Below, one piece after another: positions 20,096 through 62,980 of a stretch of DNA of 64,000 nt (its first letter is position 1; the number at the start of each line of letters is the position of its first letter). A program made the translations under genes and the position numbers. The stretch is taken from positions 29,476-93,475 of the forward strand of contig JAZDGD010000009.1 in the NCBI GenBank assembly GCA_043807255.1. The letters run 5' to 3'. Under the pieces are notes generated by a model. The model was not told the DNA's origin. It worked only from the letters and a program-made list of their open reading frames with translations, and searched no databases. Source of the stretch: Patescibacteria group bacterium. Lineage in GTDB: Bacteria > Patescibacteriota > Minisyncoccia > RBG-13-40-8-A.

Positions 20096-21960
20096 TTATT
20101 TTGTTGTCTCTCCTTCCTGGATATCCGGATTTTTGTCGTCTTTTTTTTGCGCTTCTTGTTGTGCTTTATATAATTCAGTTCCAACTTTTTGAATTGCTTG
20201 CGATAACGATTCTGACGCTTTTTTAATGCCCTCGATATCATCGCTATCTTTTATTTTCTTCAATGCCTCCACCCTGTCTTCAATTTCTTTTTTGTCTTCT
20301 GCTTTTATTTTATCACCAAATTCTTTTATTGTCTTCTCGGTTGAAAAAACTAAAGTATCGGCAGTATTTCTAATATCAACAACTTCTTTTTTCTTTTTAT
20401 CTTCTTCTGCGTGAATCTCTGCGTCTTTTTTCATTTTTTCAATGTCTTCTTTCGATAAACCTGAAGACGCTTCAATCCTAATTGATTGTTTTTTGTTTGT
20501 TGCTTTATCCAAGGCAGAAACATTTAAAACTCCGTTTGCATCAAGATCAAACGTAACTTCAACTTGCGGAATTCCTTTTGGTGCTGGCGGAATGCCATCC
20601 AAAATAAACCTACCTAGAGTTTTATTGTCACCAGCCATTGGTCTTTCGCCCTGAAGCACATGAATTTCAACTGACGGCTGATTGTCGCCTGCGGTAGAAA
20701 ACACCTGTGTCTTTGCAGCTGGAATGGTTGTGTTTTTTCAACCAATCTAGTCATAACACTACCTAAAGTTTCTATCCCCAATGATAATGGAGTGACGTCT
20801 AACAATAAAACATCTTTAACGTCTCCTTGAAATATGCCACCCTGAACAGCGGCACCCAAAGCAACTACTTCGTCGGGATTAATATCTTTGTGTGGTTCCT
20901 TGCCAAACAAATCTTTAACTTTTTGTTGCATTAATGGCATTCTGGTTTGACCGCCAACTAAAACAACTTCATCAATATCGGTAATTTTAAATCCTGAATC
21001 ATCAACAACTTGTTTGGTGATTTTTATTGCTTTGTCGATATATTCGCCAACTAAGTCCTCTAATTTTGCACGAGTAAATTTAACGTTTAAATGTTTTGGT
21101 CCATCCGAACCGCTAGTAATAAATGGAATGTTTACCTCTGTTTCAATCGCCGAAGATAATTCATGTTTTGCTTTTTCGGCAGCGTCTTTTAATCTCTGAA
21201 TTGCTAATTGATCTTTTGCCAAATCAATTCCCTCTTGTTTTTTAAATTCGTCAACAAGCCAATTCATAATGATTTGATCAAAGTCATCTCCGCCCAAGTG
21301 TGTATCGCCACCGGTTGATTTAACTTCGACGGTGTCTTTAGAAACTTCAAGCACTGAGACATCAAACGTTCCACCACCGAAATCAAAAACAACAATTTGC
21401 TCGTCTTTCTTTTTATTCAATCCGTAGGCAAGAGCAGCTGCGGTTGGTTCGTTAATAATTCTTTTAACTTTTAATCCAGCAATTTCCCCAGCGTCAATGG
21501 TCGCTTTTCTTTGTGCGTCATCAAAATAAGCCGGAACAGTAATAACTGCTTCAGTGATTTTTTCTCCCAACTTGTCTTCGGCGTCTTGTTTTAGTTTCTG
21601 TAAAATCATTGCAGAAATTTCAGCTGGTCCTTGCCATTTACCATTTAAATTAACTTCTACCGCACCTTCTTTTGATGCTCTGATTTCATAGGGTAAAAGT
21701 TTTTTATCACGCTGAACTTCGGCATCAGAAAATCTTCTGCCGATTAATCTTTTTACAGAATAAACTGTATTTTTCGAATTGGTTACAGCTTGTCTTTTTG
21801 CTAAAAGACCAACCAAACGTTCGCCTGCTTTTGAAACAGCAACAATCGAAGGAGTTGTTCTGTTTCCTTCTTTGTTTTCAATTATTCTTGGCTCGCCTCC
21901 CTCAACAATTGCCATCGCTGAATTAGTCGTGCCCAAATCGATACCTAATATCTTTGACAT
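20096..21960 (-). CDS. dnaK: Chaperone DnaK (Hsp70); reading frame broken by a -1 shift at a T6 homopolymer (20733-20738)
   Basis: ORFs 20614..21960 and 20096..20704 together span DnaK. With 7 T instead of 6, translation reads ...[33 protein letters not shown]. Confidence 0.85.
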
Positions 21961-31721: not shown

Positions 31722-31794
31722 GGCCCCATCGTCTAGTGGCCCAGGACATCAGATTCTCATTCTGAAAACACCGGTTCAACTCCGGTTGGGGCTA
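31722..31794 (+). tRNA. tRNA-Glu (anticodon CTC)
   Basis: Hand-folded cloverleaf: acceptor GGCCCCA/TGGGGCT, anticodon loop TTCTCAT, T-loop TTCAACT. Confidence 0.7.
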
Positions 31795-43646: not shown

Positions 43647-43718
43647 TGGACGCGAGAGGGATCGGACCTCTGACCTTTCCGATGTGAACGGAACGCTCTA
43701 CCACTGAGCCACGCGTCC
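43647..43718 (-). tRNA. tRNA-Val (anticodon CAC)
   Basis: Hand-folded from the rc strand. Acceptor GGACGCG, anticodon loop TTCACAT. Confidence 0.65.
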
Positions 43719-49132: not shown

Positions 49133-49203
49133 CAGGCCCGGGAGGAATTGAACCCCCGACTAAGATTTTGGAGATCTTCGTGATACCACTTCACCACGAG
49201 CCT
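49133..49203 (-). tRNA. tRNA-Trp (anticodon CCA)
   Basis: Hand-folded. Anticodon loop CTCCAAA. Confidence 0.65.
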
Positions 49204-49209
49204 AATTTC

Positions 49210-49368
49210 CTATTTTTTTGTTTCCTTATGAATCGTGTTTTTTCTGCACCATTTGCAGAACTTGCTCAACTGCAATTTTTCCTCAACAGTTTTTTTATTT
49301 CTGCGAGTAAAATGGTTGACGCGCTTACACTTTTCACAAGCTAATTTTACCGTAAAATCTTTTTTCAT
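49210..49368 (-). CDS. rpmG: 50S ribosomal protein L33
   Basis: MKKDFTVKLACEKCKRVNHFTRRNKKTVEEKLQLSKFCKWCRKNTIHKETKK. The longer listed ORF runs over tRNA genes. Confidence 0.8.
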   Translation of the reverse strand: MKKDFTVKLACEKCKRVNHFTRRNKKTVEEKLQLSKFCKWCRKNTIHKETKK

Positions 49369-49394
49369 ATATTTGTTTTTATTTTTATTATTTT

Positions 49395-49470
49395 TGGAGC
49401 CAAGATCGGGAATCGAACCCGAGACCTTCCCCTTACCATGGGGATGCTCTGCCAGCTGAGCTATCTTGGC
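49395..49470 (-). tRNA. tRNA-Thr (anticodon GGT), CCA encoded
   Basis: Hand-folded. Confidence 0.65.
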
Positions 49471-49511
49471 ATTGTGGGCCTGCCCACCGAAGCTCCGCGG
49501 TGCGGAGCGAA

Positions 49512-49595
49512 GGTGGGAGCGGGTGGACTCGAACCACCGAAGCCGTGAGGCGACAGATTTACAGTCTGTTGCAATAGCCGCTATGCGACGCTCCC
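49512..49595 (-). tRNA. tRNA-Tyr (anticodon GTA), long variable arm
   Basis: Hand-folded. Anticodon loop CTGTAAA. Confidence 0.65.
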
Positions 49596-49600
49596 TCAAA

Positions 49601-49672
49601 AGCCGACGGGGTGAATCGAACACCCGACAAATAGTTTACAAAACTATTGCTCTACCACTGAGCTACATCGGC
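49601..49672 (-). tRNA. tRNA-Thr (anticodon TGT)
   Basis: Hand-folded. Anticodon loop TTTGTAA. Confidence 0.65.
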
Positions 49673-49980: not shown

Positions 49981-50430
49981 TTAAAGCTCATATCTAATGA
50001 ACTTTTCTATTTTAATATTCTCTCCCAGCTTACCAATTTTAGCTTCAATTAAATCCTTAACGGTGATTGAAGGATTTTTTATAAATGGTTCGGCTAATAA
50101 TGTTTCTGGGTCTTTTGAATTCATGCCAGCAATATGCATTGCAATTTCATGTGCTAGTTCTTTAAATTCCTCGTTCTTGGCAACAAAATCGGTTTCGCAT
50201 TTTAATTCTAATAAAACACCAATTTTTGCATTGGCATGAATATATGCTTCAATTACACCCTGATTTGCGGTTCTGTCTGATTTTTTCATTGCCGTTAATT
50301 TGTCTTTTTCTTTTAAAATTTCGGTTGCCTTTGTTTCGTCGCCATTCGCCTCTTCCAGCGCCTTTTTACAATCCATCATTGAAGCTCCTGTTTTTTCTCT
50401 TAATTGTTTGACTAGGTCTGCGTTTATCAT
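49981..50430 (-). CDS. tsf: Elongation factor Ts (short form)
   Basis: UBA-like N-terminus LVKQLREKTGASMMDCKKAL. Confidence 0.8.
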   Translation of the reverse strand: MINADLVKQLREKTGASMMDCKKALEEANGDETKATEILKEKDKLTAMKKSDRTANQGVIEAYIHANAKIGVLLELKCETDFVAKNEEFKELAHEIAMHIAGMNSKDPETLLAEPFIKNPSITVKDLIEAKIGKLGENIKIEKFIRYEL

Positions 50431-50449: not shown

Positions 50450-51187
50450 TTATGCGGGGATTATTACTTTTTCAACTTGATTAAGCATGAATTGAAGCGC
50501 ACTTACTGCTTCATCATTAGCGGGAATAATATAGTCCACTAACGCTGGATTACTGTCCGTATCAACCAAAGAAATTACTGGAATTTTCTTTATCTTGGCC
50601 TCCCTAATTGCGGTCAAATGATCCTTAACCCCCAAAACAAATATTGCGTCTGGCAATTTATCTAATGATTTTAATCCGCCAAAATTTTTATTCAATTTAT
50701 CGATTTCCTTATCGAATGCTTTTTGTTCTTTTTTGGTATATTTCTTTAGCTCCCCTTCTTCTCTTTTCTTTTCCAGGCCGATAAAGTGATCGATTCTTTT
50801 TCTGATTGTTCTGAAGTTTGTTAAAAGTCCACCAATCCAACGCAAAGAAACATATGGCATTTTACATCTTTCCGCTGTTTCTTTTAAAATTAACTGAGAT
50901 TGTGGTCTAACCCCAACAAAAAGAATTTTTCCACTATTTTTAATTATTTCTTCAATAAAATCCAATGCTTTTTCTAATCCTTTCATCGTTTCCTCTAAAT
51001 TGATAATCTGAATGTTGTTTTTTATGCCATGGATATATGGATCCATTTTTGGATGATGATTGCCTTTTTTGTGTCCAAAATGAACACCAGCACTAAACAT
51101 TTCTTTAGCTAATTCCTCTGAAACTATTGTTTTTTTATTTTCATTTGTCATATCAATTATACTATCATAAGAATTTCGATATTGCAA
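50450..51187 (-). CDS. rpsB: 30S ribosomal protein S2
   Basis: S2-like. Conserved rpsB-tsf order. Confidence 0.85.
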   Translation of the reverse strand: MQYRNSYDSIIDMTNENKKTIVSEELAKEMFSAGVHFGHKKGNHHPKMDPYIHGIKNNIQIINLEETMKGLEKALDFIEEIIKNSGKILFVGVRPQSQLILKETAERCKMPYVSLRWIGGLLTNFRTIRKRIDHFIGLEKKREEGELKKYTKKEQKAFDKEIDKLNKNFGGLKSLDKLPDAIFVLGVKDHLTAIREAKIKKIPVISLVDTDSNPALVDYIIPANDEAVSALQFMLNQVEKVIIPA

Positions 51188-51324
51188 GTCAACCCCACCA
51201 AGGCGGGGTTGACTCTTATATATTTATATTATATCATATACTATATGAAAAAAGATATTCATCTCCCGACCGCTGTCGGGATCCCGACCGAAGTCGGGAC
51301 AGGCCCAATAAGTAAAAATAGTTT

Positions 51325-51537
51325 ATGAAAAAAAATATACATCCAGAATATTACGAACAAGCAACAGTCCATTGTGGTTGTGGCAAAATATTTAAAATGG
51401 GTGCAACCAAGCCGGAAATACACGTTGAGGTGTGTAGCGCTTGCCATCCTTTTTATACTGGTCAAGACAAAATCTTGGACTCTGCTGGACGTGTTGATAA
51501 ATTCAAAAAACGATTAGCCAAAAAAACAATTAAATAA
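51325..51537 (+). CDS. rpmE: 50S ribosomal protein L31
   Basis: [11 protein letters not shown]...CGCG...[10 protein letters not shown]. Confidence 0.85.
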
Positions 51538-51551
51538 CAGTTACGCAACCT

Positions 51552-52286
51552 ATGAGCGCTAATCCCAACAGTATAATTATAGAAATTAGAGCTGGTGCTG
51601 GTGGCGACGAAGCTGCCATTTTTGCTGCTGATTTGTATCGAATGTATTCTCGTTTTGCCGAAAAACAGGGATGGAAATTAAGAGTTTTAGATTCTAGTGA
51701 ATCTGGATCGAAAGGGATCAAAGAAATTAGTTTTCAAATTTCCGGAGCTGATGTTTATAATCTATTGAAACAAGAAGGTGGGGTTCATCGCGTACAAAGA
51801 ATCCCTGAAACAGAAAAAAACGGTAGAATTCATACTTCAACCGCATCAGTGGCAGTACTTCCCTACGTTGAACCAAAAGAATTTGAAATTAAAGCAAGTG
51901 ATTTAAAAATTGACACTTTTAAGTCGTCTGGTCCAGGCGGGCAATACGTGAATAAAACCGAATCCGCAATTAGAATCACGCATATGCCATCTGGGTTTGT
52001 TGTTGCCTCTCAGCGCGAACGAAGCCAGGCGGCGAACAAAGAAACGGCCATGAACTTATTACGTTCACGGCTTTTCGCATTTTTAGAAAACAAAGAAATA
52101 CAAAAATTGGGACAAGAAAGAAATGCACAAATTGGCACCGCTGATAGGTCGGAAAAAATCCGCACCTACAACTTTCCCCAAGATCGCATCACCGACCATC
52201 GCATCAAAAAAGAATGGCACAATATTGAAGACATCATTAATGGCAACTTCTACCCGATTATCAAAAAATTCCAAAGACCCGAATAA
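51552..52286 (+). CDS. prfA: Peptide chain release factor 1, domains 2-4 only (domain 1 absent; PET in place of PAT)
   Basis: GGQ motif [44 protein letters not shown] aligns to the RF1 PAT region. 244 aa against about 360 aa typical. Confidence 0.75.
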
Positions 52287-52287
52287 A

Positions 52288-52315
52288 CCCTCACCCAAAG
52301 TGAGGATTTATTTTA
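52288..52315. terminator. Bidirectional terminator (ccctcacccaaagtgaggg with flanking T/A tracts)
   Basis: Hairpin followed by TTTATTTT. Confidence 0.65.
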
Positions 52316-61422: not shown

Positions 61423-62331
61423 TTATTTTTTATTATTTAAAAATTTAAACACCTCCAATGTTGCAATTGCGCCTTCAGAGACAGCCGTAACAACTTGTCG
61501 GAAATTATTGGAATTAGTTGTAATGTCTCCGGCGGCAAAAATTCCAGAAACATTTGTTTTTTGTGCTTCGTCCACTTTAATAAAACCAAATTCATTGGTT
61601 ACAATGCCCAGATCTTGTAATAAAACGGTATTTGGCACTGAACCCGCTTCAATAATTAAACCGCTTGCCTCTAATTTTTTGCCATTGTCTAAAATAACTT
61701 CTTCTAACCAATCTTTTCCATTTACCTCTGTAACATTGGCATTGTAAATTATTTCCACATTTTTTAATTCCCCAACTCTCTTGGTCCATAAATCGTCTGC
61801 CCTTAATTTATCTTTTCTGTAAATTAAATAAATTTTTTCTGCTTCTTCGGCAAGCATGACCGCACCCATCACTGCCGAATTTGCACCGCCAACAATGGCG
61901 ATATTTTTGTGTTTAAATAAAGAGACACAGTTTTGTGAGCAATAACTCACTCCTTTTTGTTCAAATTTTTCTACGTTTTTAATTTCTAATTTTTTAGTTT
62001 CCGTGCCAATTGCTAAAATAATTGATTTCGCTTGATACTCCTCTTTTTCGGAAACAATTTTAAATCCATCATCAATTTTGGCAACTTGATTAACTCTGGT
62101 TTGTTCAAAATTAACTTTTAAATGTTCCAGATGTTCATAAAATTTTCCGGCCAATTCCTTACCATTTACTCCGAATATTCCTGGATAATTTTCTACTTTA
62201 TAGGCAGTATTAATAAGTCCGCCAGAAACTTCGCCAAGAACCAAAGAATTTATGCCGAAATTCTTAGCATAAATACCCGCCGAAACCCCCGCCGGCCCGG
62301 CACCAACAATAATTAAATCATAATTTTTCAT
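61423..62331 (-). CDS. Thioredoxin reductase-like FAD/NAD(P)-binding oxidoreductase
   Basis: [11 protein letters not shown] and a second GxGxxA motif. The redox-active Cys pair is CSQNC rather than the canonical CATC. Confidence 0.65.
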
Positions 62332-62557: not shown

Positions 62558-62980
62558 TTATTCAATGTTTATGCCCATATTCTTTGCCGTTCCTTCGATG
62601 ATTTTCATTGCTGCTTCGATGTCATTGGCATTTAGGTCTTCCATTTTTGTTTCTGCAATTTGTCTTACCTGTTCTCTGGTAACTTTTCCAACTTTGTCTT
62701 TTTGTGGAACCCCAGACCCCTTTTCAATTCCTGCTGCTTTTTTTAATAAATCAGCTGCTGGTGGAGTTTTTAATACAAAGCTAAAGGTTCTATCTGTAAA
62801 AATTGTAATTTCCGCTGGAATTACATTTCCCATTTTATCTTTTGTTGCTTCATTAAATTTTCCACAAAAATCTTGAAGGTTTAATCCGTGTGGACCTAAA
62901 ACCGTACCCACTGGTGGAGCTGGTGTAGCGCCTCCGGCGGGAAGTTGAATTTTAATAATTGTCTTTATTTCTTTTGCCAT
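62558..62980 (-). CDS. rplK: 50S ribosomal protein L11
   Basis: [23 protein letters not shown]. Confidence 0.9.

Follow-up and report, generated by a model that had tools for sequence, protein, structure and literature searches.

A naturally truncated release factor 1 (RF1) is encoded in the 64,000-nucleotide stretch of Patescibacterial DNA analysed here (the window). Its gene, prfA, specifies a 244-residue protein in which domain 1 is deleted and the decoding superdomain (domains 2 and 4) and the catalytic domain 3 are intact. With high confidence, we regard the gene as the housekeeping prfA of a Parcubacterium that probably lacks L1; its product would be a minimal RF1, shorn of domain 1 and of about ten C-terminal residues, with the decoding and catalytic domains retained. 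A first-pass annotation of the window had offered two readings, a reduced termination apparatus or a specialised release-factor paralogue, and the former is the better of the two. An identical protein is already deposited at NCBI, on a 103-kb contig.

The prfA gene and its transcription unit

The first-pass annotation described a 244-aa ORF that opens at the equivalent of RF1 domain 2, 14 nt after rpmE, and its coordinates, the gap and the domain start all hold. The gene and its borders comprise the following features:

51209..51237, + strand, promoter-like site 5' of rpmE (TTGACT, 17-nt spacer, TATCAT), by consensus match only
51325..51537, + strand, rpmE, ribosomal protein bL31 of 70 aa, directly 5' of prfA (ORF)
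51531..51533, + strand, TAA in the RF1 frame, inside the 3' end of rpmE (read from the sequence)
51552..52286, + strand, prfA, RF1 of 244 aa with domains 2, 3 and 4 and no domain 1 (ORF, profile matches, structure alignment and AlphaFold model)
52289..52305, + strand, terminator-like hairpin (CCTCAC / GTGAGG) followed by the T-rich tract ATTTATTTTA, 3 nt past the prfA stop (sequence)

The rpmE stop codon ends at 51537 and the prfA ATG lies at 51552. Because the in-frame TAA sits six codons 5' of this ATG, and only rpmE coding sequence lies further 5', there is no longer ORF, no hidden N-terminal extension and no frameshifted domain 1. The promoter-like site upstream of rpmE, together with the hairpin and T-rich tract after prfA, fits a two-gene rpmE–prfA unit, and the promoter-like site is likely the start of this transcript. 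Overall G+C content of the window is about 35%.

Two further elements lie in the rpmE upstream region. Between the divergent rpsB and rpmE genes is a 28-nt palindrome at 51187..51214, AGTCAACCCC-ACCAAGGC-GGGGTTGACT, each arm of which carries a TTGACT −35-like box, one per direction, with promoter-like sites at 51209 (+ strand) and 51192 (− strand). The rpmE leader contains two near-identical tandem 7-bp hairpins, CCCGAC-N4-GTCGGG, at 51265..51298 (+ strand), approximately 27 nt before the start codon. Their folding z-score is −3.3 and the pattern is unique within the window, with none expected by chance; it is absent from 80 related loci. These hairpins could serve as a leader or regulatory element or represent a small repeat.

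Domain architecture and family assignment

The profile comparison proposed in the first-pass annotation, against RF1, RF2, PrfH and ArfB, places RF1 first. NCBIfam RF1 models match the 244-aa protein at 370.6 and 358 bits, beginning at profile position 104 or 110, and the competing models score 252.8 (RF2), 97.8 (PrfH; cut-off 166.65) and 41.6 bits (ArfB; cut-off 100). Both RF1 scores miss their equivalog cut-offs (370.6 against 400 for NF001859 and 358 against 423.25 for TIGR00019) because the first ~103–109 profile positions are unmatched; where the models do match, the score is about 1.5 bits per position. As a consequence of these sub-threshold scores, the NCBI name is only "PCRF domain-containing protein". 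In Pfam, the PCRF profile matches at 158 bits over its last half only (positions 99–194 of 194), and the RF-1 domain is complete at 134 bits.

The protein aligns without gaps to residues 87–320 of Thermotoga maritima RF1 (1RQ0) and to residues 106–341 of Thermus thermophilus RF1, with 50–60% identity to solved RF1 structures over domains 2–4. It therefore consists of exactly domains 2, 3 and 4. Pfam, NCBIfam and the gapless structure alignments thus agree that domain 1 is truly missing, as the first-pass annotation had it. An AlphaFold model (pLDDT 81) superposes on ribosome-bound T. thermophilus RF1 with a TM-score of 0.91 and on ribosome-bound E. coli RF1 with a TM-score of ~0.9, in both cases at an rmsd of ~2 Å. 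The model is nearer the open, ribosome-bound form (TM-score 0.91) than the closed crystal form (~0.59), which may reflect predictor bias.

At the other end of the protein, the C-terminus of short RF1s is about 10 residues shorter than usual, with a median of 27 versus 37 residues after the DHR motif (here 52200..52286). This suggests joint loss of domain 1 and of a C-terminal tail associated with it.

Stop-codon reading residues and the GGQ motif

We located the functional residues of RF1 through the gapless alignment, in which numbering is offset by +99 to T. thermophilus:

51600..51611, + strand, codons G17-G18-D19-E20, tip of the decoding helix (gapless alignment)
51804..51812, + strand, codons P85-E86-T87, the P-x-T recognition tripeptide, with P85 and T87 invariant and position 86 hypervariable
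51936..51944, + strand, codons G129-G130-Q131, the catalytic GGQ of domain 3 (alignment; invariant in 59 relatives)

Residues G17, E20, Q82, P85, T87, I93, H94 and T95 correspond to T. thermophilus G116, E119, Q181, P184, T186, I192, H193 and T194, which are the stop-codon-reading residues in published RF1–ribosome structures, G116 and E119 being the readers of the first stop-codon base. In an alignment of 59 relatives with at least 65% identity, 76 columns are invariant; among them are G17, E20, Q82, P85, T87, E88, H94, T95 and the GGQ, and I93 is invariant or nearly so. The first-pass annotation was right that GGQ is kept, at residues 129–131.

The same annotation read PET as standing in place of the PAT recognition motif. 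PET is indeed present, at residues 85–87, and T. thermophilus RF1 has P184-V185-T186 at the aligned site, but no motif has been replaced: recognition is defined by P-x-T, and PET is no departure from it. Across the best 120 protein clusters, P and T are constant and the middle position is occupied by 11 different residues (E in 77, K in 15, A in 6, S in 5, L in 4, I, D and T in 3 each, and V, G and R in 1 each). Of the full-length RF1s retrieved, too, more have PET than any other form: it occurs in 29/90 representatives of 50%-identity clusters and 21/51 GTDB loci.

Stop-codon usage and release factor 2

The first-pass annotation had proposed a check of stop-codon usage across the genome. Run at the scale of the 64-kb window, it finds UAA, UAG and UGA all used as stops: of 71 ORFs with 80 aa or more, TAA ends 49, TAG 15 and TGA 7. 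The TAG count includes the end of a frameshifted dnaK fragment, which is no natural gene end. TAG terminates S9 (...QWSKR) and L7/L12 (...ATVELK) at their canonical C-termini, so UAG is in use as a true stop codon. To our knowledge, RF1 is the only reader of UAG. The canonical UAG ends of S9 and L7/L12 call for an efficient UAG reader, which implies that the short RF1 must work, its release activity being predicted from these gene ends.

TGA ends dnaJ, gap, L25 and fba, which points to the standard code, so that an RF2 would be expected elsewhere in the genome. Screening metagenomes for GGTE-x-QDW, an AT-rich pattern specific to RF2, yielded 120 RF2 loci. Aside from a few cut by contig ends and one non-RF2 locus, these have at least 113 open codons 5' of the motif, and none is truncated. 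A Patescibacterial origin is demonstrable for none of them (best neighbour identity at most 48%), which makes the scan uninformative for the Patescibacterial genome described here.

Several other features were recorded in the window. The dnaK gene (20096..21960, − strand) is split into overlapping ORFs of 448 and 202 aa by a 1-nt frameshift near 20690–20700, at a run of six A's (GTTGAAAAAACACAACC); seven A's would give ...LVEKNTTIP.... The frameshift is probably a homopolymer assembly error and possibly a real frameshift. A cluster of four tRNA genes lies at 49133..49672 (− strand), between yceG and a small membrane ORF 5' of tsf, and the 137-aa ORF that overlies it (49210..49623, − strand) is probably spurious. 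Two more tRNA genes are found at 43647..43718 (− strand) and 31722..31794 (+ strand).

Genomic context and ribosomal protein L1

The gene belongs to a conserved Patescibacterial block with tsf–rpsB on one strand and rpmE–prfA on the other, followed by an SLT-domain gene, L25 and fructose-bisphosphate aldolase. Here prfA is flanked by rpmE on its 5' side and by the convergent SLT-domain gene on its 3' side. Full-length prfA likewise lies directly downstream of rpmE in Patescibacteria, Eremiobacterota, Aminicenantes and others, and this shared slot marks the short gene as an RF1 orthologue rather than a PrfH-type paralogue. The distance from the end of rpmE to the aligned core is ~370–500 nt in full-length prfA versus 40–100 nt in the shortest same-strand cases, a difference of ~300 nt that is the size of the domain-1 coding segment. 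In the neighbouring tsf–rpsB block is another shortened translation factor: EF-Ts (tsf, 49981..50430, − strand) is only 149 aa long, and E. coli EF-Ts has about 280 aa.

The first-pass annotation also observed that rplA is missing next to rplK, and this was borne out:

62558..62980, − strand, rplK, uL11, complete with N-terminal and RNA-binding domains (domain match)
61423..62331, − strand, thioredoxin-reductase-like (pyridine-nucleotide-disulphide) oxidoreductase at the usual rplA place after rplK (annotation)

A tblastn search with Patescibacterial L1 returned nothing in the 64-kb window, in which L10 and L7/L12 are present. The further step of tying the missing rplA to the loss of domain 1 confused two ribosomal stalks. 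Domain 1 of RF1 contacts the L11 stalk, L1 forms the E-site stalk on the opposite side of the ribosome from it, and we know of no contact of L1 with domain 1 of RF1. Since L1 belongs to the other stalk, a direct functional link to domain 1 is unsupported, and L11 itself is complete with both domains. We therefore rejected a functional tie between the two losses, which amounts to co-occurrence with no mechanistic basis. Published work gives loss of L1 as a hallmark of the OD1-L1 Parcubacteria (PMC5220378), and complete genomes bore this out (Tsurumaki et al., PMC9297842). A contrasting Komeilibacteria locus (L067) has a full-length RF1 and L1.

Distribution of short RF1 across Patescibacteria

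Nearly all members of the best 120 protein clusters are 230–250 aa long, and several are encoded on contigs of 0.3–0.54 Mb. More than 100 independent protein clusters, drawn from many different assemblies and sources, share the short architecture. JGI and some NCBI records call these proteins "peptide chain release factor 1", whereas other records have only "PCRF domain-containing protein". In a GTDB scan at one genome per species, the 80 best loci were compared by how many residues precede the conserved core; 28 of them have a short or intermediate RF1:

Extension of ~0 aa: 17 loci, labelled Paceibacterota, Staskawiczbacteria, "Parcubacteria group" or just generically
Extension of 11–36 aa: mostly Staskawiczbacteria-type
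Extension of ~60–67 aa: L055 and clusters P0065, P0076, P0077, P0084 and P0090-92
Extension of 94–109 aa (full length): Moraniibacteriota, Falkowbacteria, Komeilibacteria and all non-CPR phyla

The ~60-aa extensions can be aligned to the two final domain-1 helices of full-length Patescibacterial RF1. This gradation suggests that domain 1 was lost stepwise, from full length to a two-helix stub to nothing. Most extensions of 26–36 aa are unlike domain 1 and consist of a conserved segment, D[FY]SKFTxEDWKNY, followed by a low-complexity linker. The segment could be a new docking peptide; its carriers are the Staskawiczbacteria-type prfA genes at L003, L013, L019, L022, L025, L026 and L043.

In a neighbour-joining ordering of the core domains, the short and intermediate forms all group with one another and no full-length RF1 falls among them; the ordering is crude and does not establish a single origin of the truncation. 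After clustering at 50% identity, the short clusters among the hits inspected are P0050, P0126 and P0153, and the great majority of RF1 clusters are ~355 aa long. Judged from these genes, the domain-1 truncation is lineage-wide, shared by a clade of ultra-small Parcubacteria.

Some hits fall outside this pattern. Clusters P0002-P0011 and their relatives (231–235 aa) have a further deletion of ~10 aa in domain 2, where they read LDDNVIQISG against a 20-residue segment of the window protein, and this subgroup holds the smallest RF1s among those compared, at ~231 aa. The best-scoring long hits, P0121 and P0122 (477 and 481 aa), were considered as tandem fusions and rejected; they are full-length RF1s with an internal core duplication of ~120–130 aa and look like assembly artefacts. 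Likewise, among the other hits below 300 aa that were inspected, P0137, P0157 and P0205 were discarded as short RF1s, being 5'-truncated gene calls from other organisms.

Alternative explanations

The missing domain 1 is a feature shared with PrfH, and the window is a single 64-kb piece of the genome; the gene could on these grounds be a paralogue, a PrfH-like or other rescue factor for damaged or stalled ribosomes, with a full-length RF1 encoded elsewhere. We consider this very unlikely. The PrfH score of 97.8 bits is below the family cut-off of 166.65 and far from the 370.6 bits of RF1, no rtcB adjoins the gene, and the gene occupies the orthologous rpmE–prfA locus. Residues around the decoding site of PrfH differ from those of RF1 and RF2 (PMC1586002), and the protein described here keeps the canonical P-x-T reading head. 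A tblastn search for a second release factor in the 64-kb window gave no match, and a second homologue within 10 kb of prfA occurs at 0/80 related GTDB loci. The PrfH-type paralogue raised in the first-pass annotation thus finds no footing in score, neighbourhood or synteny, and the 244-aa form is probably the only RF1 of the genome. It is extremely improbable that the gene has instead been split, with domain 1 encoded separately and joining the 244-aa core non-covalently. No direct evidence speaks for such an arrangement, although domain 1 is flexible and loosely attached (PMC1586002). A tblastn search of the 64-kb window for a domain-1 remnant, with the stubs of relatives and E. coli domain 1, returned no match; loci without an N-terminal extension have rpmE, on either strand, or another unrelated gene on the 5' side; and the graded intermediates argue for stepwise loss, not fission.

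An assembly or annotation artefact, or a decaying pseudogene, might be suspected in a MAG contig whose dnaK carries a homopolymer frameshift. Recurrence of the same architecture in more than 100 independent protein clusters effectively refutes this explanation, and the 76 invariant alignment columns and the clean gene boundaries, with a stop on the 5' side and a terminator-like hairpin on the 3' side, also count against it. Equally, one could suppose that the E of PET shifts stop-codon specificity, so that for instance UGA or a wider range of codons is read, within an altered code coupled to L1 loss; UGA ends 7/71 ORFs, and RF2 is unseen in the 64 kb. We give this almost no credence: PET is the commonest form in ordinary full-length RF1s, the clade tolerates many residues in the middle of P-x-T, the residues known to choose between A and G at the second and third positions are all canonical for RF1, and 64 kb is too small a part of a genome for the lack of prfB to be informative. 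The housekeeping, domain-1-less RF1 is the explanation that we retain.

Discussion

Domain 1 is the least conserved release-factor domain, flexible and loosely attached (PMC1586002). According to Mora et al. (2003), as summarised in PMC1586002, neither stop-codon recognition nor in vitro peptide release requires it, truncated E. coli RF1 is functional in vivo, and domain 1 is needed to interact with RF3 and to stimulate it. The relevant passages of PMC6514570 name it the GTPase/RF3-interacting domain and include it in their account of the canonical bacterial factors.

We propose that the short RF1 would bind the ribosomal A site and read UAA and UAG through the helix-tip Gly/Glu, the P-x-T tripeptide and the Gln/Ile-His-Thr pocket. 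It would then place GGQ in the peptidyl-transferase centre and bring about hydrolysis of peptidyl-tRNA, as in any RF1. Because the domain that contacts the L11 stalk and RF3 is missing, exit from the ribosome is proposed to occur without RF3-driven recycling, and the factor may leave spontaneously or during recycling by RRF and EF-G. Peptide release, UAA/UAG specificity and RF3 independence of the short RF1 are all predictions from sequence. Bacillus subtilis is not known to have RF3 and yet keeps domain 1; if it does lack RF3, loss of RF3 alone would not explain the deletion.

Comparison with known systems sharpens this picture. Canonical RF1 (T. maritima 1RQ0, T. thermophilus) shares with the short form the P-x-T and GGQ motifs, the helix-tip Gly/Glu, the His-Thr pair and, in its genes, the position after rpmE; the N-terminal helical domain 1 of ~100 aa and ~10 C-terminal residues of the canonical factor are all missing from the short one. 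The engineered E. coli RF1 of Mora et al. (2003), as related in PMC1586002, likewise consists of domains 2–4 only, releases peptide, keeps its codon specificity and supports growth. In that account it is a laboratory deletion with impaired growth in a host that has RF3, whereas the short RF1 is natural, clade-fixed and conserved. The translation system of the short-RF1 clade has presumably adapted to the deletion. PrfH (RFH) also lacks domain 1 and has a domain 2/4-like module and GGQ, but its recognition region is divergent, it is partnered by rtcB and it rescues damaged ribosomes, in contrast to the canonical reading head and rtcB-free locus seen here. ArfB, ICT1 and C12orf65 are reduced class-I relatives that similarly work without domain 1; they have a C-terminal tail instead of domains 2 and 4, both of which are complete in the short RF1, and only its GGQ region matches ArfB.

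In the searchable literature we found no published description of a domain-1-less RF1 in CPR/Patescibacteria and nothing relevant on prfC, RF1 or RF2 in these bacteria. Release factors are absent from the supplements of two OD1-L1 genome papers, termination factors go unmentioned in the main paper on reduced CPR ribosomes, and the passages of PMC6514570 that were searched make no mention of a naturally truncated RF1 or RF2.

It is quite possible, and we put it tentatively, that a large clade of L1-less Parcubacteria terminates translation with a minimal class-I factor that has no stalk- or RF3-binding domain, reached by stepwise loss. If so, its termination cycle would run without RF3 and without contact to the L11 stalk, and in the Staskawiczbacteria type domain 1 would have been replaced by the new conserved peptide D[FY]SKFTxEDWKNY. 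The RF2 of the same genomes may be likewise reduced, with its frameshift autoregulation site lost.

With the short RF1, a whole clade carries naturally the domain-1 deletion that had been made in the laboratory; it is not a new mechanism. Surveys of stop-codon reassignment or translation gene content that go by the presence of prfA could score genomes with a short RF1 as lacking RF1. The graded intermediates offer material for asking what domain 1 does, whether in RF3 recycling, stalk docking or the closed-to-open switch. Taken together, our analysis extends the published list of reduced CPR ribosomal components (uL1, bL9, uL30 and rRNA helices) by a translation factor and suggests that decoding and catalytic domains alone can suffice for a housekeeping release factor.
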